From assembly GCA_038249055.1 (NCBI GenBank), contig JBBRWS010000001.1:14244-78243 (forward strand): a stretch of 64,000 nucleotides of DNA. Direction: 5' to 3'. Under the pieces are notes generated by a model. That model worked only from the letters and a program-made list of their open reading frames with translations, had not been told where the DNA came from and searched no databases. Origin of the DNA: Minisyncoccia bacterium. Lineage in GTDB: Bacteria > Patescibacteriota > Minisyncoccia > Phycocordibacterales > UBA9973. Position numbers and translations under genes: made by a program. Below, piece after piece: positions 2,695-12,614 of this stretch (its first letter is position 1; the number at the start of each line of letters is the position of its first letter).

Positions 2695-5694
2695 ATGAAA
2701 AATTACGATCATAAAAAAATTGAAAAAAAATGGCAAAAAGAATGGGATAAAAATGGAATCTATAAGACCGTTAATGGAAAAGGTAAAAAGATGTATGTTC
2801 TTGATATGTTTCCATATCCGTCTGGAGTGGGTCTTCATGTGGGACACCCTCGTGGTTATATAAGTAGTGATGTATATGCTCGTATGAAGAGTATGCAAGG
2901 CTATAATGTGCTTCACCCTATGGGATATGATGCGTTTGGTTTACCAGCTGAACAGTATGCATTGCAACATAAAATACATCCCAGAAAAGCCGTTTTAGAA
3001 AATGTTAAGACTTTTAAGAAACAGCTTTCTATTATAGGACTTTCTTATGATTGGTCTCGAGAAGTAAATACAACTGACCCCAAATATTATAAATGGACAC
3101 AATGGATATTTCTTCAAATTTATAATTCTTGGTATGACAAAACAAAAAATAAAGCACGACCTATAAAAGAGCTTGAAATTATTTTTGAAAAAAGTGGAAA
3201 TCTAAAAGTAAATGCTAGTTGTAGTTTTGATGTAAAATTTTTTTCAGCAAAGGTGTGGTCTAGTTTTTCAAAAAAAGATAAGCAAGATATTTTAATGAAA
3301 TATCGTCTTGCTTATGAAGGACACAGTGAAGTAAATTGGTGTGAAAAAATGGGCACAGTTTTGGCAAATGATGAAATAGTAAATGATGCAAAAGGAAATC
3401 CAGTTTCAGAAAGAGGAGGATTTCCTGTTGAAAAAAAAATAATGCGTCAATGGTTTATGAGGATTACTGCATATGCAGACAGGTTACTATCTGGTCTTGA
3501 GGGGTTAGATTGGAGTGATCATATAAAAGAAATTCAGAAAAATTGGATAGGGAAAAGTGAGGGTAGTGAATTAGAATTTAAGATTTCAATTTCTTCAGAG
3601 GTCCAACCTCCGAAGTCAGTTGAGGTTGGACCTCTGAAGGTATTCACAACTCGTGCCGATACTATTTTTGGTGCGACGTATGTAGTGCTTGCGCCGGAAC
3701 ATCCTTTGGTTAATACCTTAAAATCAAATATATTAAACCAAGAGGAAGTTATTAAATATATAAAGTTAATAAAAAATAAGACTGATGAAGATCGTACTAA
3801 AAATGATAAGGAAAAAACAGGCGTAGAATTAAGGGGGGTTATGGCTATTAATCCAGCCAATGGAAAAGAAGTACCAATTTGGATAGCTGATTATGTACTC
3901 GCTACTTATGGTACAGGTGCTGTTATGGCAGTGCCCGCGCATGATGAGCGAGATTTTGAATTTGCAAAAAAATACAATTTAAATATAAAGCAGTCAGTAA
4001 TGCCAGTTTATGGGAATAGTGTTAAAGGAGAGGAATATAGATATGCTGTCTCAGCTTTTGTTAAAAGACCATCAGATGGTAAATATTTATTTATTAAGGC
4101 AAAAGAATTTAATCAAATTTCAAAAGTTTATGGTGGAATAGAAGAAGGTGAAAATCCTGTACTAGCTGGAATTCGAGAAGTTTTTGAAGAAACTGGATAT
4201 AAAACAAAATCAGTTACAGATTTTGGATTTTCAATTCAATCACATTTTCACCATCCCCATAAAAAAGTAAACCGTAAATTGATTAGTGATTTAGTAGAGT
4301 TGGAATTAATAGATGAAGAACAATATGAGGTAGACGAAGAAGAAGCATTGCTACATGAAGTAGTGTGGCTTACTCTCGATCAAGCAAAGAAATTAATCAC
4401 AAATCCAAAAGAATTATATGATTTTGAAATACGTGAGGGAAAAAAGTGTTTTACTGATGATGGTGTTTTGTGTAATTCAGACAATTTTTCGGGAATCTCT
4501 TCAGAGGCTGCTCGCATGCAAATAACAGAATTTGTTGGTGGAAAAATAGTCACAAAATATAAAATGAGAGACGCAATATTTGCACGTCAAAGATATTGGG
4601 GTGAACCAATACCGTTAAGGCATAATCTTGATGGAACTATAACTGAATTTAAAGAAAAAGATTTACCCCTTGAATTACCAAATGTTAAATCTTATGTTTC
4701 TATCGGTACAGGTGAGTCGCCACTTGCAGGTGTAAAGTCATGGGTAAAAGAAGGTTTTGAAACAAACACAATGCCAGGATGGGCAGGTTCATCTTGGTAT
4801 TTTTTAAGATACATGGACCCACTAAATTCAAAACAATTTGCATCAAAAAAGGCTATTGAATATTGGAGAGAAGTTGATATGTATGTAGGTGGACAAGAAC
4901 ATGCAACTGGACATTTACTCTACTCACGTTTTTGGAATAATTTCTTGTTTGATTTAGGTTGTGTTCCATTTAAAGAGCCATTTAAAAGATTAAAAAATCA
5001 AGGTATGATTCTTGCTACGGATGGGCGTAAAATGAGTAAACGTTGGAATAATGTTATAAATCCAGATGATATTGTTAATAATTATGGAGCTGATACATTA
5101 CGCATATATGAAATGTTCATGGGGCCATTTGAACAAAGTTTACCTTGGTCAACTGACAGCATTATTGGCTCACGTAGATTTTTAGATCGTATATACAGAA
5201 TTCAGGAGAAAGTTACAAATACAAAAAGTATTTTAGGTGTAGAAAAAATTATTCATAAGACTCTTAAAAAAGTAAGTGAAGATATTGAAAATTTTGCTTT
5301 CAATACAGCAGTATCTTCTATGATGATTTTAGTAAATGAGATTGAAAAGAGTGAATTTATTGGAAAAAATGATTTTAAAATATTTTTACAGATGCTCGCT
5401 CCTTTTGCCCCTCATATTACAGAAGAACTATGGGGTAATATAGGGGAAAAGAAATCTATTCATAAAAGTTCATGGCCTAAATGGGATAAAAAGAAAATAA
5501 TAGACGATGTGATTAAAATCGCTGTTCAAGTTAATGGAAAAGTTCGTGCTGAAATAATAATATCAAAGGACATGACAGAAGAAGAAATAAAAGATGTATC
5601 TTTGAAAGACAAAAATATAGTAAATTGGATTTTAAATAAAGAAATAAAAAGAATTATTTATGTTCCAAATAGAATTGTAAATATTGTTGTCTAG
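2695..5694 (+). CDS. leuS: Leucyl-tRNA synthetase, unusually long (999 aa) with editing domain plus an embedded Nudix domain and a small palindromic insertion
   Basis: HVGH and KMSKR class I motifs, TTRADTIFGATY editing domain entry, AHDERDFEFAKKY. Confidence 0.95.
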   Translation: MKNYDHKKIEKKWQKEWDKNGIYKTVNGKGKKMYVLDMFPYPSGVGLHVGHPRGYISSDVYARMKSMQGYNVLHPMGYDAFGLPAEQYALQHKIHPRKAVLENVKTFKKQLSIIGLSYDWSREVNTTDPKYYKWTQWIFLQIYNSWYDKTKNKARPIKELEIIFEKSGNLKVNASCSFDVKFFSAKVWSSFSKKDKQDILMKYRLAYEGHSEVNWCEKMGTVLANDEIVNDAKGNPVSERGGFPVEKKIMRQWFMRITAYADRLLSGLEGLDWSDHIKEIQKNWIGKSEGSELEFKISISSEVQPPKSVEVGPLKVFTTRADTIFGATYVVLAPEHPLVNTLKSNILNQEEVIKYIKLIKNKTDEDRTKNDKEKTGVELRGVMAINPANGKEVPIWIADYVLATYGTGAVMAVPAHDERDFEFAKKYNLNIKQSVMPVYGNSVKGEEYRYAVSAFVKRPSDGKYLFIKAKEFNQISKVYGGIEEGENPVLAGIREVFEETGYKTKSVTDFGFSIQSHFHHPHKKVNRKLISDLVELELIDEEQYEVDEEEALLHEVVWLTLDQAKKLITNPKELYDFEIREGKKCFTDDGVLCNSDNFSGISSEAARMQITEFVGGKIVTKYKMRDAIFARQRYWGEPIPLRHNLDGTITEFKEKDLPLELPNVKSYVSIGTGESPLAGVKSWVKEGFETNTMPGWAGSSWYFLRYMDPLNSKQFASKKAIEYWREVDMYVGGQEHATGHLLYSRFWNNFLFDLGCVPFKEPFKRLKNQGMILATDGRKMSKRWNNVINPDDIVNNYGADTLRIYEMFMGPFEQSLPWSTDSIIGSRRFLDRIYRIQEKVTNTKSILGVEKIIHKTLKKVSEDIENFAFNTAVSSMMILVNEIEKSEFIGKNDFKIFLQMLAPFAPHITEELWGNIGEKKSIHKSSWPKWDKKKIIDDVIKIAVQVNGKVRAEIIISKDMTEEEIKDVSLKDKNIVNWILNKEIKRIIYVPNRIVNIVV
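3593..3639. repeat. Palindromic element family A, copy A2, inserted within leuS coding sequence (18-bp perfect arms cttcagaggtccaacctc / gaggttggacctctgaag)
   Basis: Perfect inverted repeat read directly; encodes EVQPPKSVEVGPLK in LeuS, which has no counterpart in E. coli LeuS at that position (about 10 residues longer than E. coli here). Confidence 0.75.
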
Positions 5695-7668: not shown

Positions 7669-9492
7669 ATGGATATCAAATCAATTAGAAATTTTTCAAT
7701 CATTGCCCACATTGATCACGGCAAGAGTACTTTGGCTGACAGAATGATTGAAGTTACTGGTACGATTGAAAAGCGTAAAATGAAAGACCAGGTTCTAGAT
7801 TCAATGGATTTAGAAAGAGAGAGAGGAATTACTATAAAAATGCAACCTGTTCGTATGGAATATAAGTTAAAAAATGATAATTACATTTTAAACTTAATCG
7901 ATACACCTGGTCACATAGATTTCTCGTATGAAGTATCTCGTGCCCTAAAGGCTGTGGAAGGGTCTATACTCCTTGTGGATGCGACTCAGGGAGTGCAAGC
8001 ACAAACACTGACCACTTTACAAATGGCTCGTGACTCAGGGCTCGTAATCATTCCAGTGCTTTCAAAGATTGATTCTCCACTAGCCCGCGTTGATGAAATA
8101 AAAATGGAAGTTTCTATTTTATTAGACATAGATCCTGATTCTATATTACTTGTTTCTGGAAAGACTGGAGAAGGAGTAGCTTTATTACTTGAAGAAATAA
8201 TAAAAAAAATACCTTGTCCTCATGTAAATGAAAACCTTTTATTAGCAACTAATACTGGGCGTGCCTTAGTTTTTGATTTTAAATATGATAATCATAGAGG
8301 AGTTATAGTTTATATTCGGGTTGTTGACGGGGGTTTTAAAAAAGGGGAATCTCTTCTTTTTGCTGTTTCTTCAGAAAAATTTATTTCACTTGAAGTTGGA
8401 ACATTTTCTCCAGAAGAAGAGCCTCGGGATTATTTGGGTAGTGGAGAAATTGGATATATAGTTACTGGAATTAAAAAGCCAGGAATAGCATCCGTAGGAG
8501 ATACTATTACTTTTCTTAAAAAACCAATGCCACCTTTACCAGGTTATCAAAATCCTAAACCAGTAGTTTGGGCTTCTATATATCCAGAAAGTCAGGATGA
8601 TTTTCCAAATCTTAAACAAGCACTAAGCAGATTGCGTTTATCAGATTCATCTTTTTCTTATGAAGAAGAAAATTCTGGATCACTCGGTAGGGGGTATAGA
8701 TGTGGATTTTTGGGAATGCTTCATTTAGAAATTATTACAGAAAGATTAAATCGTGAATTTAATTTGGAATTAATAGTAACTATGCCTTCAATCACTTATA
8801 AAGTATTACTCCGTAACGGTGTTGAACAAATTATATATTCTCCTCATCTTTTTCCTGACGATGGAAATATTGTAAAAGTATTTGAACCGTGGGTTAACGT
8901 AAAGATTATAACCCCTTCTATTTATATAAGTTCGCTTATGCCATTTTTATATGATCATGAAGGATTAATAAAAGGCACAGATAATTTTGGAGATAATAGG
9001 TCATCTATTGATTTAGAAATGCCGTTACGCGAACTAATGCGTAATTTCTTTGATGATATGAAAAGTATTACTTCTGGTTATTCATCAATTTCTTATGAAA
9101 TAGGAGAGTATAAAGAAGCCGATGTAGTTAGACTAGATATAATTGTAGCAGATGAACCAATGGCAGCTTTTTGTAGAGTAGTATCACGTAGAAAAGTTGA
9201 AGAGGAAGCTAAGCAACAAGTTGAAAAATTGAAAGATATTATTCCAAGGCAGCAGTTTAATTTTAAAATTCAAGGCAAAGCGTTAGGTAGAATTATTTCA
9301 TCTGAATCAGTTTCTGCCTTCCGTAAAGATGTTCTTATGCATGGTAGTAAAATGGTTGGAGGAGGGGATGTGAGTCGTAAAAAGAAATTACTTGAGAAAC
9401 AAAAAAAGGGTAAAAAGAGAATGCAGGCAAATGCAAAAATAAATATATCTCATGAAGTTTTTTTGAAAATGATGAGAGGAACAAATAGTTAA
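7669..9492 (+). CDS. lepA: Elongation factor 4 (LepA)
   Basis: IAHIDHGKSTLADR G-domain, length 607 aa, LepA C-terminal domain. Confidence 0.95.
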   Translation: MDIKSIRNFSIIAHIDHGKSTLADRMIEVTGTIEKRKMKDQVLDSMDLERERGITIKMQPVRMEYKLKNDNYILNLIDTPGHIDFSYEVSRALKAVEGSILLVDATQGVQAQTLTTLQMARDSGLVIIPVLSKIDSPLARVDEIKMEVSILLDIDPDSILLVSGKTGEGVALLLEEIIKKIPCPHVNENLLLATNTGRALVFDFKYDNHRGVIVYIRVVDGGFKKGESLLFAVSSEKFISLEVGTFSPEEEPRDYLGSGEIGYIVTGIKKPGIASVGDTITFLKKPMPPLPGYQNPKPVVWASIYPESQDDFPNLKQALSRLRLSDSSFSYEEENSGSLGRGYRCGFLGMLHLEIITERLNREFNLELIVTMPSITYKVLLRNGVEQIIYSPHLFPDDGNIVKVFEPWVNVKIITPSIYISSLMPFLYDHEGLIKGTDNFGDNRSSIDLEMPLRELMRNFFDDMKSITSGYSSISYEIGEYKEADVVRLDIIVADEPMAAFCRVVSRRKVEEEAKQQVEKLKDIIPRQQFNFKIQGKALGRIISSESVSAFRKDVLMHGSKMVGGGDVSRKKKLLEKQKKGKKRMQANAKINISHEVFLKMMRGTNS

Positions 9493-9536
9493 AACTACAT
9501 AAAAACACCTATAAATAGGTGTTTTTATGTAGTTTT
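9492..9536 (+). terminator. Long hairpin aaactacataaaaacacctat / ataggtgtttttatgtagttt after lepA
   Basis: About 20-bp perfect stem followed by T-rich run. Confidence 0.7.
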
Positions 9537-9709
9537 ACTCCAAGATTAGACGTAAAAAGGAAGTTTAAGCACCTCTTTTAATTCATAAGGCCCGGAATAT
9601 ATAGTAAAATCATACTTATTATTACAAGTATTGAAACTACTGCAAAAGCTCTCTCTATTCTTTTTTTATTTCTTGAATTGAAATTCATGATATAATACTA
9701 CCATTAAAT

Positions 9710-10090
9710 ATGATGAAATCCAAGAAAACTAATTATAAATTTTGGCACTCGCCCATAGCACTTGGTCTTCTTTTTGTAATTTTAATTTTCTTCGGGTATA
9801 AGATTATTGATTTAATAAAAAGAGAAAGGGAAACTGCTCATGTAAAAGGGGATATTTTAGATAATTTAGAAATTTTACAGAAGAAAGAAACATCTTTGTT
9901 AAAGGATTTAGCTAGACTTGAGACAGAAGAAGGAAAAGAAGAGATTATTCGAGAAAAATATCCATTCGTTAAAAATGGTGAAAAGATGGTTACAATAGTT
10001 AACGAGAGTGAAAAAATTATATCTTCATCAGAGACAGAGAAAAATAATCATGGTTTTTGGAATTGGATTAAAGGAATTTTTAATAAGTAA
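9710..10090 (+). CDS. ftsB: Septum formation initiator FtsB/DivIC-like
   Basis: N-terminal TM, coiled coil, EEIIREKYPFVKNGEKMV motif typical of FtsB/DivIC. Confidence 0.6.
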   Translation: MMKSKKTNYKFWHSPIALGLLFVILIFFGYKIIDLIKRERETAHVKGDILDNLEILQKKETSLLKDLARLETEEGKEEIIREKYPFVKNGEKMVTIVNESEKIISSSETEKNNHGFWNWIKGIFNK

Positions 10091-10093
10091 AAT

Positions 10094-10164
10094 GCGGGAT
10101 TGGTTTAGTGGTAGGATGCGACCTTCCCAAGGTTGAGGCACGAGTTCGATTCTCGTATCCCGCA
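10094..10164 (+). tRNA. tRNA-Gly (anticodon CCC)
   Basis: Acceptor gcgggat/atcccgc, anticodon loop ttCCCaa, T-loop ttcgatt; hand-folded. Confidence 0.75.
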
Positions 10165-10197
10165 CATATTTAAAAACACTGAAAGGTGTGTTTTTAA

Positions 10198-10342
10198 ATA
10201 TGTGCGGGATAGTAAGCCAACTGCTTGGCTTACGTGCGAGAATCGAAAAGCTTTTCGTTCTCCGATGGATATCGGAGCGAAAAGGTGTACTGAAGCTGTA
10301 AGCTTCGATAAACGTACTCGCGGTCTCGTATCCCGCACATAT
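10198..10342. repeat. tRNA-Gly-linked structured unit 1: 14-bp terminal inverted repeats atatgtgcgggata...tatcccgcacatat (right end identical to tRNA-Gly 3' end), internal hairpins
   Basis: TIRs and hairpins (gtaagcc-aactgc-ggcttac, ctccgat-ggat-atcggag, cgaaaagcttttcg) read directly. Confidence 0.6.
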
Positions 10343-10374
10343 CTAAAAAGACTCTTTAAAGAGTCTTTTTTAAT

Positions 10375-10540
10375 ATATGTGCGGGATAGCAAAAGAACTG
10401 CTTCTTTTGCGTGCAACGATTAGTAAATCGAACCGTGAGGAGAATCGAAAGGCTTTTCCTTGTCGAAGATGGAAAAGCACCAGCGACCGTGATTTACAAA
10501 AATCACCTACTGGGTCAGGCGAGATTTTTGTATCCCACAT
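10375..10540. repeat. tRNA-Gly-linked structured unit 2 (diverged paralog of unit 1; right TIR degenerate tatcccacat)
   Basis: Same start atatgtgcgggatag, same hairpin loop aactgc with compensatory stem caaaag/cttttg, shared gagaatcgaaag(g)cttttc block. Confidence 0.55.
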
Positions 10541-10552
10541 TCATTATGTCAA

Positions 10553-10580
10553 TATTTGCATATTTTATCACTATGCTATA
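10553..10580 (+). promoter_or_regulatory. Candidate sigma70-like promoter (tttgca N16 tataat) for glutaredoxin-like gene
   Basis: Consensus -10 TATAAT with plausible -35, 43 bp upstream of ATG. Confidence 0.35.
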
Positions 10581-10623
10581 ATTATAGAGCAGAATTAATT
10601 ATCATTTAACTTAAATAAATTAT

Positions 10624-10863
10624 ATGAAAAAAGTAACCGTATATAGCACACCATCATGTCATTTTTGTCACATGGCAAAAGATTTTTTTAAAGAGAAAAA
10701 TATAGCCTTTGAAGATTTTGACGTTTCTGTAGATTTAGTAAAAAGAAAAGAAATGGTAGATAAAAGTGGACAAATGGGTGTACCAGTAATTTTAATCGAT
10801 AACGATTTAATTGTTGGTTTTAATAAGCCAAAGATCGCAGAACTTTTAGGTATAACAGAGTAG
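10624..10863 (+). CDS. Glutaredoxin-like protein (NrdH/YruB-like) with CHFC active site
   Basis: VYSTPSCHFC..GQMGVPVILID glutaredoxin fold motifs; paralog of 46955-47191. Confidence 0.7.
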   Translation: MKKVTVYSTPSCHFCHMAKDFFKEKNIAFEDFDVSVDLVKRKEMVDKSGQMGVPVILIDNDLIVGFNKPKIAELLGITE

Positions 10864-10929
10864 TAATTTTTAAAATAATGACGTATTATAAGAGCATTCC
10901 AGTACGTATTGGAATGCTCTTATAATTTT

Positions 10930-11001
10930 GCCCTCGTAGTTCAATGGATAGAACAGTTCCGTCCTAAGGAATAGATGCACGTTCGATTCGTACCGAGGGC
11001 A
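10930..11001 (+). tRNA. tRNA-Arg (anticodon CCT)
   Basis: Acceptor gccctcg/cgagggc, anticodon loop gtCCTaa, T-loop ttcgatt (one C-A mismatch in T-stem); hand-folded. Confidence 0.6.
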
Positions 11002-11038
11002 CTTTTATTTTCGAACAAAATATGATAATATTCTTAAT

Positions 11039-11341
11039 ATGGATCCTGAGACAAAACAGTTATTAGAGGAAAACTTAAAGTTGTCTAAAGAAAACAACGA
11101 AATGCTGAGTAGTCTTATCCGTAGTAAAAAAAGAAATAATATATTTAAGGCGGTTTATTGGGGTATTATAATTATTATAACCATTGGAACTTATTATTTT
11201 ATTCAACCTTATATTAGCGGTTTGACTAGTTTATATACAGGAGGTGCTTCAGATTTACAAGGCATAGGAGATATAAAAGCAAAGTTGGGTGACCAAGAAC
11301 AAATAGATGCTTTGTTAAATCTTATAAATCAAAAAAAATAA
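11039..11341 (+). CDS. Hypothetical small membrane protein
   Basis: ORF with one hydrophobic helix; no recognisable domain. Confidence 0.35.
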   Translation: MDPETKQLLEENLKLSKENNEMLSSLIRSKKRNNIFKAVYWGIIIIITIGTYYFIQPYISGLTSLYTGGASDLQGIGDIKAKLGDQEQIDALLNLINQKK

Positions 11342-11386
11342 ATTGCCCAGATATAAAGTAAAAATGTTTTAAAATAAAATATAATT

Positions 11387-11459
11387 GCCTAGATAGCTCA
11401 GTTGGTAGAGCGCTCCCCTGAAGAGGGATAGGTCCCCAGTTCAAATCTGGGTCTAGGCA
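11387..11459 (+). tRNA. tRNA-Phe (anticodon GAA)
   Basis: Acceptor gcctaga/tctaggc, D-arm tagctcagttggtagagc, anticodon loop ctGAAga, T-loop ttcaaat. Confidence 0.7.
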
Positions 11460-11460
11460 C

Positions 11461-11608
11461 AATAAGTAATAGTCTTACAATTAAAATATTTATCTCAGAC
11501 TAGATAGCCAGTTCAAAGTCTTTGGTCTAGGCACAACAAATAATAGTCTTACAATTAAAATATTTACCTCAGACTAGATAGCCAGTTCAAAGTCTTTGGT
11601 CTAGGCAC
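11461..11608. repeat. Two tandem 74-bp direct repeats, each ending in a degenerate copy of the tRNA-Phe T-arm plus acceptor 3' end, followed by hairpin and an inverted partial copy (11642-11651)
   Basis: Units 11461-11534 and 11535-11608 nearly identical; ends gccagttcaaagtctttggtctaggcac vs tRNA cccagttcaaatctgggtctaggcac. Confidence 0.7.
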
Positions 11609-11756
11609 AATTAAAAAATACCTGTTAAGGTGTTTTTTTATTGTGCCTAGAAAGCGAGGATTGTGGGGTGGAGACTATTTAATTGTTTAAAAAAATTATA
11701 CAATTAAATTGTCGCAAAATTATAAAATATGAAGTTGTATAAATACCAATAATAAT

Positions 11757-12065
11757 ATGAAATCTATAAATCAAGAGGTTGTTAAAGAAATTGTTAGTTT
11801 TATTGAGGGTTCAAGTTTTTATAATAAAATTCAGATTATTACTGAAAATAGTGGACAGAAAACTGAAACTTTTTATTTTTTAAAAGAAGAAGGTATTGGG
11901 CATACTATTCTTCTTCAAAAAGAAGATGGTCAAATTGAGACAATACAAGAAACTCATATGATAGATAAAGACTTTGTTTATAAAAAATTAGATTTAATAG
12001 AAGATAATGCTAAGGTTAATATATGTGGAAATAGTGGAGACTTTATTCTCTCTATAAAATTATAA
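11757..12065 (+). CDS. Hypothetical protein
   Basis: ORF only. Confidence 0.35.
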   Translation: MKSINQEVVKEIVSFIEGSSFYNKIQIITENSGQKTETFYFLKEEGIGHTILLQKEDGQIETIQETHMIDKDFVYKKLDLIEDNAKVNICGNSGDFILSIKL

Positions 12066-12086
12066 TATCTTTTCGCTCGATAAAAT

Positions 12087-12116
12087 AAAAAATCCTGACT
12101 TAAGTCAGGATTTTTT
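12087..12116. terminator. Bidirectional hairpin aaaaaatcctgac-ttaa-gtcaggatttttt
   Basis: Perfect stem flanked by A/T runs between convergent genes. Confidence 0.6.
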
Positions 12117-12119
12117 ATT

Positions 12120-12614
12120 TTATATTGATTTAATCTTTAATTTTGTTTCTCTATTTTTATCCAACTTAGGAAGTTTGATAATTAATAGCCCGTGTTTTTC
12201 TATTGCCTCTGCTTCTTCTGGGTCAACTTCTTCTGGAAGGGAAATGGTTCTTGAGAATGAACCCCAATAAAGTTCTTGTACAAAATAATTATCTTTTTCT
12301 ATTGATTGGTTCTCTTCGCGTTTACCACGTATAGTAATCATATCGCGAGTTATAGTAATAGAAAGATTATCTGGCTGTACTCCTGCTACCATTGTTTGGA
12401 CAATAATATCTGTTGGAGTTTGGTATAAGTCTACAGTTAATTCTGCATCTATTTCTTCTTCCCATTTAGATTCTCTTTGTTCATGGTTATCTTTAGTGGG
12501 AGAATTAATTTTTCTATTTGCTCCACCAAGGTAATTTTCTTCTTCGTTTTCTTCGTTTTCTTCAAATCTCATACTACCAGTTAAACGTTCTAAAAATGAT
12601 CTCTTTTTTGGCAT
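12120..12614 (-). CDS. Small heat shock protein, Hsp20/alpha-crystallin family
   Basis: Alpha-crystallin domain pattern ..TVDLYQT..ITIRGKRE..GSFSRTISLPEEVD..AEAIEKHGLLIIKLPK. Confidence 0.75.
   Translation of the reverse strand: MPKKRSFLERLTGSMRFEENEENEEENYLGGANRKINSPTKDNHEQRESKWEEEIDAELTVDLYQTPTDIIVQTMVAGVQPDNLSITITRDMITIRGKREENQSIEKDNYFVQELYWGSFSRTISLPEEVDPEEAEAIEKHGLLIIKLPKLDKNRETKLKIKSI

Follow-up and report, generated by a model that had tools for sequence, protein, structure and literature searches.

Islands and prophages that integrate at the 3' ends of tRNA and tmRNA genes insert directly behind an intact gene, are flanked by direct repeats running from its T-loop to its 3' end and a few bases into the trailer, stack in tandem and leave displaced tRNA fragments behind. 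The genomes of the Candidate Phyla Radiation are usually considered poor in mobile DNA. Here, we describe two units behind a tRNA-Gly(CCC) gene, and their homologs, which share all of these traits with tRNA-targeting islands and prophages. They differ from integrase-borne islands in that the whole module is only ~175 nt long (spacer hairpin included) and has no integrase and no credible ORF, carries an antisense copy of its target, and keeps a multi-helix fold as its conserved part. Moreover, the same conserved core occurs behind tRNAs of at least 14 identities, in contrast to the single target of a classical integrase. The units are members of a widespread, strongly structured non-coding family of the Candidate Phyla Radiation that has apparently gone undescribed, and we found no description of such an element in the literature.

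In the window (the whole stretch of DNA that was analysed, 64,000 nt), ARAGORN calls three tRNAs only. The region around the tRNA-Gly(CCC) gene contains the following features:

10094-10164/10165, + strand: tRNA-Gly(CCC), intact (ARAGORN; Rfam tRNA, 61.9 bits)
10166-10200, + strand: spacer hairpin 1, stem AAAAACAC / GTGTTTTT, 8-nt loop (fold: 13 bp, -12.0 kcal/mol alone)
10198-10342, + strand: unit 1, type A, intact (covariance model (CM) R1, 150 bits, E = 1e-41; fold; covariation)
10198-10211, + strand: unit 1, antisense of trailer and acceptor 3' strand
10212-10233, + strand: unit 1, P1 hairpin
10237-10247, + strand: unit 1, antisense of T-stem 3' strand and T-loop
10248-10286, + strand: unit 1, P2
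10285-10291, + strand: unit 1, conserved joiner GUGUACU
10292-10306, + strand: unit 1, P3 (GAAGC-UGUAA-GCUUC)
10307-10312, + strand: unit 1, GAUAAA
10313-10320, + strand: unit 1, P4
10324-10342, + strand: unit 1, sense copy of the tRNA 3' end, 19/19 identical to 10151-10169
10343-10374, + strand: spacer hairpin 2, stem AAAAAGACTC / GAGTCTTTTT (fold: 11 bp)
10374-10541, + strand: unit 2, type B, degenerate (CM R1, 32.5 bits, E = 3e-6 / 2e-8; fold)
10374-10388, + strand: unit 2, antisense strand
10389-10410, + strand: unit 2, P1
10417-10430, + strand: unit 2, extra hairpin
10440-10449, + strand: unit 2, antisense of T-stem/T-loop
10451-10478, + strand: unit 2, P2
10480-10513, + strand: unit 2, P3-like stem with inserted hairpin
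10523-10539, + strand: unit 2, decayed sense copy of the tRNA end, GATTTTTGTATCCCACA, 82% identical
10555-10863, + strand: native downstream context, outside the element (promoter-like site TTTGCA-16-TATAAT with TG, then a glutaredoxin-like gene at 10624-10863)

An earlier note on this DNA had described the tRNA gene, a hairpin, two units and a second hairpin, and all of these are present at these coordinates. The tRNA-Gly(CCC) gene has A10164 as its discriminator base and does not encode CCA. The stretch from 10141 to 10169, which comprises the T-arm, the acceptor 3' strand and the trailer CATAT, is both copied and complemented by the units. The 19-mer TCTCGTATCCCGCACATAT at 10151-10169 recurs at 10324-10342, and the right repeat thus reproduces 19 nt of the tRNA 3' end, as had been claimed. 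Such a repeat at both junctions, with the tRNA intact, is a mark of tRNA-targeting integrative elements of the tyrosine-integrase type; the element-borne integrase gene that also marks them is absent. The sequence ATATGTGCGGGATAG occurs exactly at 10198 and 10375, and a complement with a single mismatch lies at the tRNA end (10155-10169) and at the end of unit 1 (10328-10342); no further match was found in the 64 kb with up to 3 mismatches allowed. The units also share the block GAGAATCGAAARGCTTTTC, at 10238 and 10440 (chance expectation 0.06), and CGAGAATCGAA complements the tRNA-Gly sequence TTCGATTCTCG at 11/11 positions, which bears out the antisense-like character given to this block. The 14-bp terminal inverted repeats of the earlier note do exist at these sites, but they are not fixed ends: they are the two strands of an acceptor-stem copy plus 5 bp of trailer, they vary with the neighbouring tRNA, and their complementarity resumes beyond the first hairpin, where it takes in the T-stem and T-loop.

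At the level of folding, a perfect 24-bp palindrome runs from the tRNA 3' end through hairpin 1 into the start of unit 1 (10156-10179 / 10188-10211; -36.4 kcal/mol for 10156-10211). Hairpin 2, together with 10329-10342 and 10375-10388, makes a long imperfect palindrome (-34.1 kcal/mol for 10329-10388), and complementarity is 24/24 at unit 1 versus 90% at unit 2. The stems of the two hairpins differ by compensatory changes. Unit 1 folds at -65.8 kcal/mol (z = -7.4) and unit 2 at -47.1 kcal/mol (z = -2.8). In the sense copy of unit 2, two C-to-T changes give G-U pairs and one C-A mismatch lies in the acceptor stem.

Both units belong to one family and are matched by the covariance model R1, which gives 136 matches in metagenome loci and ~30 in related MAGs. 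A 26-nt core pattern is found exactly in more than 120 metagenome contigs, and unit 2 has homologs in loci L008, L006, L025, L017 and L005. For the window organism, look-ups of exact proteins gave a single short contig, and the nearest relative has a DivIC that is only 70% identical. The earlier note would have been refuted by units without homologs or belonging to a known RNA family; neither is the case. At the gathering threshold, Rfam 15 matches the 3 tRNAs of the whole window and nothing else. At E <= 10 over 9000-12500 the units overlap only sub-threshold miRNA-like hairpin noise, and the Rfam tRNA model has no match in 10198-10541 even at E <= 10. Searches of IMG/VR with the type A and type B patterns gave 0 matches, and blastn found no match to the units in phage and plasmid collections.

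Other familiar identities were rejected too. ARAGORN calls no tRNA gene in the units, whose tRNA-like parts are acceptor and T-stem strands only, and no tmRNA anywhere in the window. Group I introns greatly exceed the units in length; no Rfam intron family matches the units, and the D-arm and anticodon loop that a tRNA with a group I intron would bring are absent. In Patescibacteria tRNAs, such introns are reported at position 35/36 (PMC13011429). Finally, the ORFs of 56-103 aa that cross the units on both strands are not credible as genes: the indels of homologs are not multiples of three, and the sequences covary as helices.

Across the family, the module has a constant order: a terminator-like hairpin; an antisense target copy, in which P1 separates the trailer and acceptor 3' strand from the T-stem 3' strand and T-loop; a conserved multi-helix core (P2, GUGUAC, P3 with its UGUAA loop and an optional P4); and the tRNA 3' end as a sense copy. 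Five helices (P1, P_T, P2, P3 and P4) were recovered de novo by RNAalifold from an independent MAFFT alignment of 62 non-redundant copies, in which 30/33 pairs have changed on both sides and 14 columns are invariant. In the CM-fitted alignment, 92% of cells are able to pair, versus 63.5% in shuffles and 34-46% in slid controls. The earlier argument from compensatory changes to a selected structure is therefore confirmed on 62-136 homologs. The loop AACTGC, which had been called conserved from the two units, did not hold up family-wide: it consists of two closing A-U pairs and a variable tetraloop.

A fold of this kind would also be expected if the units were genes for tRNA-shaped small RNAs, serving as a mimic, decoy or cofactor for a tRNA-binding protein. 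We keep this option of the earlier note as the main rival to the reading that we prefer, doubtful as it appears. Such an RNA would have an acceptor-like stem stacked on a T-like stem (12-13 bp), P1 in the place of the D/anticodon arm and an enlarged 'elbow' of P2-P4 instead of the T-loop. It would be co-transcribed with the tRNA by read-through, excised by tRNA-processing enzymes and spread by duplication. The multi-helix fold is strand-specific, with helices that covary strongly and junctions whose nucleotides are invariant, traits typical of functional RNAs; its architecture can be laid on the tRNA L-shape, the units are on the strand of the tRNA without exception, and the C-to-T changes of unit 2 retain pairing. 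In addition, in MAGs with LepA 70-90% identical, the core is about as conserved as the neighbouring tRNA genes, which would also fit an RNA useful to the host.

Several observations speak against a small RNA. The unit helices may lack a G-U excess: GU/UG versus AC/CA number 46 vs 44 in the MAFFT alignment and 189 vs 106 in the CM-fitted one, against 112 vs 28 for the tRNAs at these loci. The acceptor 3' strand is lost, and the 5' strand kept, in about half of the copies, so the tRNA-like closure is not the conserved feature. The stem runs 3-10 bp past the acceptor end, and extension beyond this end disfavours cleavage by RNase P. In a read-through transcript, a hairpin of 24-35 bp with the tRNA 3' half would compete with folding of the tRNA itself. 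A terminator-like hairpin stands ahead of each unit, no promoter-like site was found between hairpin and unit, where there is no room for one, and the presence of units among relatives is patchy.

The position of the units is highly regular. In Patescibacteria, the core follows a tRNA gene on the same strand at a distance of ~120-130 nt. At least 14 tRNA identities are represented, including Arg (4 anticodons), Glu, Gln, Lys, Pro, Trp, Gly, Val, Leu, His, Asn and Met, and the core is also found behind tmRNA (L096 and L150). The antisense part follows the target: its 8-mer has 0.54 mismatches to its own tRNA versus 2.81 to other tRNAs, and T-loop variants are mirrored in the antisense heptamer (four in the 8-mer set, five with L165, read by eye). 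The antisense strand matches the proximal tRNA with at most 1 mismatch in 8 in 51/59 cases, whereas just 26/59 units retain their own distal acceptor copy. The tRNA end, spacer and antisense strand form a single long hairpin in 53/56 cases, with a median of 23.5 bp. The tRNAs adjoining units have intact stems, and we saw no chimeric tRNAs among them that would be the trace of a crossover.

Since the best-kept feature of the module is its complementarity to the tRNA trailer and 3' strand, the units could also be host devices acting in cis: a terminator or insulator, or else a module for tRNA 3' maturation. How the upstream tRNA is terminated or processed would then depend on the hairpin and antisense strand, which would also protect the promoter downstream. 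Hairpin 1 is A/T-flanked, terminator-like and directly behind the tRNA, empty sites of relatives are without any hairpin, and a strong promoter follows immediately downstream. We nevertheless think a cis-acting device highly improbable: a terminator needs no conserved multi-helix core of ~140 nt downstream, the module is absent at most orthologous tRNAs, and pairing with the acceptor and T-arm would harm the tRNA rather than help it. The window hairpins, A/T-rich with fewer than 3 G-C pairs, are moreover not called in a standard terminator scan. At other loci, for example L165 (GCGTCAC-GAAA-GTGGCGT + T6), the spacer is a textbook terminator.

Comparison with related MAGs of conserved synteny shows occupied and empty versions of the same site. 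Units occupy 13/42 orthologous sites at tRNA-Gly, 10/48 at tRNA-Arg and 3/34 at tRNA-Phe. The empty sites are without exactly the hairpin, the unit and the duplicated tRNA end, and hairpin 1, missing from them, is therefore part of the insertion. The native trailer and promoter lie directly behind the tRNA at empty sites and behind the unit's distal copy at occupied ones; in the window, this native region is 10555-10863, which is directly 3' of the tRNA in empty-site relatives. At occupied sites, at least 17-19 nt of the tRNA end are present in duplicate. In tandem arrays, the tRNA-proximal unit outscores the distal one in 11/14 cases, a modest trend that is confounded by a model trained on type A when some distal copies are type B. 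The window units agree with the trend, with 150 bits for unit 1 vs 32.5 for unit 2, and tRNA-end copies that are 19/19 and 82% identical, respectively.

Our preferred reading, in which we have middling confidence, is that the units are non-autonomous insertion modules that target tRNA 3' ends specifically, stack behind one another and are moved by a putative unlinked enzyme. The combination of empty and occupied sites, many tRNAs plus tmRNA, and better preserved proximal copies favours stacked insertion. Among the options raised earlier, the miniature integrative or MITE-like element is thus the one favoured, stacked by repeated insertion but without the fixed ends of a MITE. Insertion would be a site-specific recombination event inside the stretch that runs from T-loop to 3' end, with new copies entering beside the tRNA and pushing older ones outward, where they would decay; with newcomers on the tRNA side, unit 1 would be the recent copy and unit 2, as we infer, the older one. 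When the module is free or single-stranded, its antisense copy may pair with its sense copy into a duplex mimicking the target site, and a recombinase with its gene elsewhere in the genome may use the conserved junction core as its handle.

The enzyme itself is the missing part of this reading. No recombinase, transposase or reverse transcriptase is present in the units or recurrent beside them. Clusters of downstream ORFs and of all ORFs of at least 150 aa (120 loci) contained housekeeping families only, and Pfam revealed no recombinase, transposase or reverse transcriptase among 20 candidate window ORFs and no integrase among 40 cassette and window ORFs. Further points weigh against insertion: neither within-species polymorphism nor a free, excised or circular form was observed, and the reading gives no account of how the antisense and sense copies both come to match a new tRNA. 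Part of the pattern could instead stem from gene conversion and template-switch correction of palindromes, not transposition. In locus L085, for example, units at tRNA-Pro and tRNA-Gly(TCC) have P1 and an unusual insert in common, and one of the units is chimeric; such exchange inside one genome also counts in favour of the insertion modules.

Fragments of tRNA ends without a core are also common, for example behind the tRNA-Gly of L004, and in L041 and L009 displaced tRNA-Arg 3' fragments adjoin a second tRNA-Arg allele. The window has its own case behind tRNA-Phe:

11387-11460: tRNA-Phe
11461-11655, + strand: related features behind tRNA-Phe

Two 74-nt tandem repeats follow this tRNA, each closing with a copy of its 3' end; from their sequence, we read them as probable tRNA-Phe pseudogenes with internal deletions. 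Next is a hairpin at 11613-11640 and then the orphan antisense strand TTGTGCCTAGA, after which no core is recognisable; CM R1 has a weak match at 11601-11650.

Fragments such as those of L004, of L041 and L009 and of the window tRNA-Phe would be expected if the units were inert scars, that is, attL/attR-type remnants or the reduced left ends of larger islands or cassettes whose cargo was removed by deletions between repeated tRNA ends. In support of this, and equally of insertion modules, at the tRNA-Asn of L165 and L143, units are interleaved with arrays of accessory ORFs (a nucleotidyltransferase, an ADP-ribosyltransferase and unknowns). Yet scars would not retain a compensated 5-helix fold and an exact 26-nt core over more than 120 contigs. 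The majority of units are solitary amid housekeeping genes, and near-identical tandem copies occur free of cargo (L118 and L037). We consider this explanation very unlikely.

To return to insertion modules, the question posed by the family is how one conserved core is matched to so many tRNA targets. The matching mechanism could be a guide-based or target-mimic recombination. A tentative and rather unlikely extension is that the module is a naturally programmable insertion element, in which nucleic acid, not protein, picks the insertion site. The antisense and sense copies would fold into a mimic of, or guide for, the 3' end of the tRNA gene, and one trans-acting enzyme would recognise the conserved junction core. 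Programmable insertion would account for the occurrence of a single core behind tmRNA and behind tRNAs of at least 14 identities. If mobile, the modules would be among the smallest site-specific insertion elements known. If also programmable, they would represent a minimal guide-defined DNA insertion system in reduced-genome bacteria, and possibly a tRNA-gene cassette-capture system with the units in an attC-like role. If they are RNAs instead, they would form a new tRNA-shaped class. In any case, the modules make tRNA-end fragments, long palindromes and tandem repeats beside tRNA genes, and such repeats can confuse tRNA annotation, island prediction and the assembly of Patescibacteria MAGs.

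Beyond the islands and prophages considered at the outset, the units can be set beside four groups of known systems. Miniature elements (MITEs, Correia, RUP and REPIN/BIME) are, like the units, small non-coding sequences that occur in multiple copies, with inverted repeats at their ends, strong folding and a patchy presence among relatives. A MITE was rejected on the terminal repeats, which in the units are copies of the adjacent tRNA and vary with it, and on the 'target duplication', which comprises at least 17-19 nt of the tRNA end. Insertion of the units is also confined to tRNA and tmRNA 3' ends, and we know of no parent IS.

The tRNA-like domain of tmRNA, viral TLS, mascRNA and YrlA share with the units an acceptor-like stem stacked on a T-like stem, a stem that in the units copies a real tRNA, and one arm in the D/anticodon position. 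The units differ in having no T-loop and no D-loop, a stem that continues past the acceptor end and a closure that is often lost.

Integron attC sites and the attP(+) of CTX phage resemble the units in a structure kept by base-pairing. The folded strand would rebuild a partner-like duplex, and a hairpin or extrahelical feature would be carried by one strand. As with attC, promoter-poor accessory ORFs can sit between the sites. An integron attC was rejected, however: the ends ATATGTGCGGGATA / TATCCCGCACATAT are tRNA-derived, without an R-box or L-box consensus (GTTRRRY), the fold is multi-branched, and there is no linked IntI or Xer gene. The apical region is conserved in the units and variable in attC, and the stem sequence of the units is that of the tRNA.

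Lastly, IS110 bridge RNAs and IS1111 seekRNAs were rejected as identities, given the lack of an adjacent recombinase in more than 100 contexts and of a two-loop bridge architecture in the consensus fold, which is multi-branched with a conserved apex. No DEDD/serine recombinase or TnpA is nearby, and the complementarity of the units covers 20-30 nt and is also self-paired. By analogy, though, these RNAs and the 4-nt DNA guides of IS200/IS605 may be likened to the units in placing a target-complementary sequence beside a structured scaffold, a layout that would let one machinery serve many targets.

The tRNA-Gly gene of the window is followed by two structured non-coding units, each preceded by a spacer hairpin, in the layout that the earlier note described:

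10094-10164/5, + strand: tRNA-Gly(CCC) (ARAGORN, Rfam)
10166-10200, + strand: hairpin 1, 13 bp
10198-10342, + strand: unit 1, type A, intact
10343-10374, + strand: hairpin 2
10374-10541, + strand: unit 2, type B

Both units start with ATATGTGCGGGATAG, the complement of which is restricted to the tRNA-Gly end and the end of unit 1. The duplicated tRNA end noted earlier is exact in unit 1, whose final 19 nt are the tRNA end and its trailer; in unit 2 the identity of the copy falls to 82%. The units also share a block, GAGAATCGAAARGCTTTTC (2 matches vs 0.06 expected by chance), which is indeed antisense to the T-arm, its first 11 nt being an exact complement of the T-loop and T-stem of tRNA-Gly. 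Unit 1, next to the tRNA, is intact: its repeats are perfect and its fold has a z-score of -7.4. In the distal unit 2 (z-score -2.8) there are additional hairpins, a C-A mismatch and two G-U pairs. A perfect 24-bp palindrome (-36.4 kcal/mol) runs from the tRNA 3' strand through hairpin 1 into the start of unit 1.

The source genome is a member of the Patescibacteria, of the Paceibacteria/Nomurabacteria kind, and its LepA (7669-9492) is 68-90% identical to LepA from 80 MAGs of that kind. Most of these MAGs keep the order LepA, DivIC/FtsB-like protein (PF04977), tRNA-Gly(CCC), glutaredoxin-like protein, tRNA-Arg(CCT), small ORF and tRNA-Phe. Twenty further window ORFs are housekeeping genes, with a recombinase in none. 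Directly after unit 2, at 10555-10582, a site resembling a strong promoter with extended -10 (TTTGCA-16-TG-TATAAT) precedes the glutaredoxin-like gene; the module is wedged between the tRNA and this site. Two perfect A/T-rich palindromic hairpins at gene ends, one after lepA (9489-9538) and one between convergent genes (12077-12126), look like the spacer hairpins and weakly match the outer stem of our covariance model.

That homologs should exist beyond the window is borne out: 26 nt of core sequence from unit 1 (GTGTACNGANNNTGTAAGNNTCGATA) recur in at least 120 metagenome contigs (exact-pattern scan), and nhmmer with the two units as query detects relatives at many of the 80 MAG loci, 3' of tRNA-Gly, tRNA-Arg and tRNA-Phe. 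The covariance model, trained on 11 copies, assigns 150 bits to unit 1 and 32.5 bits to unit 2, yields no further match above noise in the rest of the 64-kb window, and gives 136 matches across 100 metagenome loci. Two interior subtypes can be told apart. Unit 1 represents type A, which is marked by the joiner GGUGUAC and, as a rule, by a small hairpin, P4. In type B (unit 2), (G/U)ACC replaces this joiner, accompanied by either a GGCUA-UGUAA-UAGCC hairpin or a stem of the form CCN-GCGACNGUA-NGG; intermediates occur, for example in L150 (L-numbers are loci from related MAGs or metagenome contigs). Nothing resembling the units was found in Rfam 15, IMG/VR, or phage and plasmid collections, and a literature search found no description of such an element.

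In an alignment of 128 distinct sequences fitted to the covariance model, and thus leaning towards it, 92.1% of cells pair (shuffles 63.5%, slid controls 34-46%) and 47 of 48 pairs show both-sided changes. Because of this leaning, 62 non-redundant copies were realigned with MAFFT alone and the fold was predicted by RNAalifold, which recovers P1 (a hairpin of 7-9 bp), P_T (a closing, T-stem-like helix), P2 (ACCUU/AAGGU with a variable hairpin), P3 (GAnnC-UGUAA-GnnUC) and P4 (GYG-UACU-CRC). The compensatory changes first seen between the two units extend to the family, with double changes that keep pairing in 30 of 33 pairs of the MAFFT alignment. The junction holds the invariant nucleotides (GGAAUCGAA, GGUGUAC, UGUAA, CGAUAAG). 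The supposedly conserved P1 loop did not survive the comparison: across the family it consists of two closing A-U pairs and a variable tetraloop.

The units are closely tied to the adjoining tRNA. In about two thirds of metagenome matches the core (the P2-P3-P4 part and joiner) is preceded, at a distance of ~120-130 nt, by the end of a same-strand tRNA, with identities including Arg (GCG, TCT, CCT, TCG), Glu, Gln, Lys, Pro, Trp and Gly as well as Val, Leu, His, Asn and Met. The 5' part of a unit complements the trailer, discriminator base and acceptor 3' strand of its own tRNA and, after P1, the T-stem 3' strand and the entire T-loop (mismatches per 8 nt: 0.54 for the own tRNA vs 2.81 for tRNAs with another identity). 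Where the T-loop is a variant, the antisense heptamer mirrors it in four cases (TCCGATT twice, TTCGAAT, TGCGATT) and, when read by eye, in a fifth (TTCGATC, L165); one variant has no mirror. From the P3 3' strand on, the 3' part follows the tRNA colinearly, starting at ~position 52 and reaching the trailer, P4 in type A being inserted in the former T-loop. Since the 5' part is complementary and the 3' part colinear, a unit is, as read from sequence, an antisense and a sense copy of the last ~25 nt of the tRNA around a conserved core.

Units sit next to the real tRNA end. The antisense strand has at most 1 mismatch in 8 to the proximal tRNA in 51 of 59 cases vs only 26 of 59 for the unit's own distal acceptor copy, and tRNA end, spacer and antisense strand form one hairpin in 53 of 56 junctions (median 23.5 bp, -36.5 kcal/mol). 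The tie to the functional tRNA end is therefore better kept than the unit's tRNA-like closure.

Several 'orphan' units follow tmRNA, a tRNA-Asn with upstream sequence that we take for a group I intron, or a tRNA-end fragment. Units at tmRNA (L096 216-1044; L150 4980-5400, - strand) have ends that match the tmRNA 3' end (TGTGGAGATGAG ...). At L089 (~9750-9880) and L143 (~4446-4575, - strand), ARAGORN calls no tRNA upstream of the units; intron-like sequence and then a tRNA-Asn 3' half stand there, consistent with the group I introns reported at position 35/36 of tRNA-Asn in Patescibacteria (PMC13011429). In L125 (2519-2592, - strand) a matched unit follows an ARAGORN tRNA with anticodon UUA (which would read UAA; label 'tRNA-Stop') that may be a suppressor-type tRNA.

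Related MAGs offer both empty and occupied sites (occupancy: tRNA-Gly 13/42, tRNA-Arg 10/48, tRNA-Phe 3/34). At an empty site the native trailer and promoter region lie directly 3' of the tRNA (CATTGACTTAA... in L021, L012, L027 and L041), and at an occupied one (L016, L060) native sequence resumes after the distal copy that ends the last unit; a comparison of L004 with the window shows the equivalent arrangement at tRNA-Arg. The extra DNA is exactly hairpin and unit, including the second tRNA-end copy, and the adjoining tRNAs have intact acceptor and T stems. We give about an even chance to the reading that the units are stacked, non-autonomous insertion modules for the T-loop-to-3'-end segment of tRNA or tmRNA, a segment that site-specific recombination would duplicate on insertion. 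In the putative free form, the antisense copy would anneal to the sense copy and so resemble the target as a duplex, the conserved junction would be the handle for a presumed unlinked enzyme, and both copies would come to match a new tRNA. In tandem arrays the tRNA-proximal unit outscores the next in 11 of 14, under a model trained on type A; this pattern, along with the intact unit 1 and altered unit 2 of the window, fits successive insertion beside the tRNA and later decay of older copies. In L085, units at tRNA-Pro and tRNA-Gly(TCC) have in common P1 and an unusual insert (the CGATTAG-AAATCG hairpin also seen in window unit 2), and one unit of the Gly array bears a Pro-type T-stem strand; therefore, copies exchange sequence within a genome. 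That the units are inert integration scars seems improbable to us beside the paired changes of the core. In L008 (6340-6512), a deletion has left only the final ~11 nt of tRNA-Gly, joined to where the DivIC-like ORF ends; the hairpin and a type B unit are kept.

The analysis also bears on whether RNA or DNA is constrained. By construction, the unit fold belongs to the strand of the tRNA. A tRNA-shaped small RNA, with its T-stem-like closing helix, is a minority reading that we hold well below insertion modules. In the MAFFT alignment, unit helices have 46 G-U/U-G vs 44 A-C/C-A (189 vs 106 in the model-fitted alignment); a tRNA control (acceptor and T stems, 215 tRNAs, same loci) has 112 vs 28. 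No promoter was found between hairpin and unit, and the spacer is a textbook terminator in other loci. A host terminator or processing device is the reading that we rate lowest, a shade below inert scars. A long hairpin on a read-through transcript would compete with tRNA folding. Given this competition, the terminator-like spacers, the missing promoter and the lack of G-U excess in the MAFFT alignment, we lean towards constraint at the DNA level, as a folded single strand or palindrome. In some copies, GAGCGAAGCGAG-type sequences with GCGAAGC or GCGTAGC replace the long spacer hairpin (L131, L133, L135) or the P2 apex (P2 loops of L094, L132, L142, L171); these motifs are very stable mini-hairpins in single-stranded DNA.

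ORFs downstream of or near units are diverse and mostly housekeeping, with no recurring family and no recombinase among them. At tRNA-Asn in L165, L143 and L089, accessory ORFs (Pol-beta-type nucleotidyltransferase, ART-PolyVal ADP-ribosyltransferase, DUF1428, methyltransferase and unknowns) take turns with the units. The arrays in L165 (560-3400, - strand) and L143 (460-4445, - strand), where the ORF blocks are bounded by inverted repeats of their own around TTCGAAC / GAAGTTCGAAC, look like a cassette array. These blocks lie within a split pseudo tRNA-Asn 3' end (CCTACC ... TTCGGAGCA).

Other variants were seen at tRNA-Phe and tRNA-Arg. Window 11461-11655, 3' of tRNA-Phe, holds two 74-nt tandem repeats, each terminating in a tRNA-Phe 3'-end copy; they look like tRNA-Phe that has lost its interior between two CAGTT motifs. 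Next come a hairpin and then an orphan antisense strand (TTGTGCCTAGA) without recognisable core. The mini-repeat recurs in L009, L013 and L017, and the tRNA-Phe site of L008, L041 and L065 has type B units. In L041 (6860-7100), L009 (3229-3470) and L025 (7050-7230), a tRNA-Arg copy that is truncated at its 5' end and has the native trailer on its 3' half encloses a P2-P3 core in its anticodon arm; a complete tRNA-Arg of a different allele stands just upstream.

Among known systems, the unit module most resembles, in how it works, the integrative elements of tRNA genes, which differ in having an integrase. It possibly works like folded att sites (attC, CTX attP), yet lacks the R/L boxes that define integron attC. 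Nor does it have the constant inverted repeats that define a MITE or the adjacent recombinase that defines bridge-RNA systems, and it belongs to no Rfam family. A categorically new kind of system, with insertion defined by a guide or mimic, is to us a minority possibility. Because the module is likest integrative elements yet lacks what defines each family, we place it with site-specific insertion at tRNA 3' ends, as a variant outside each family compared.
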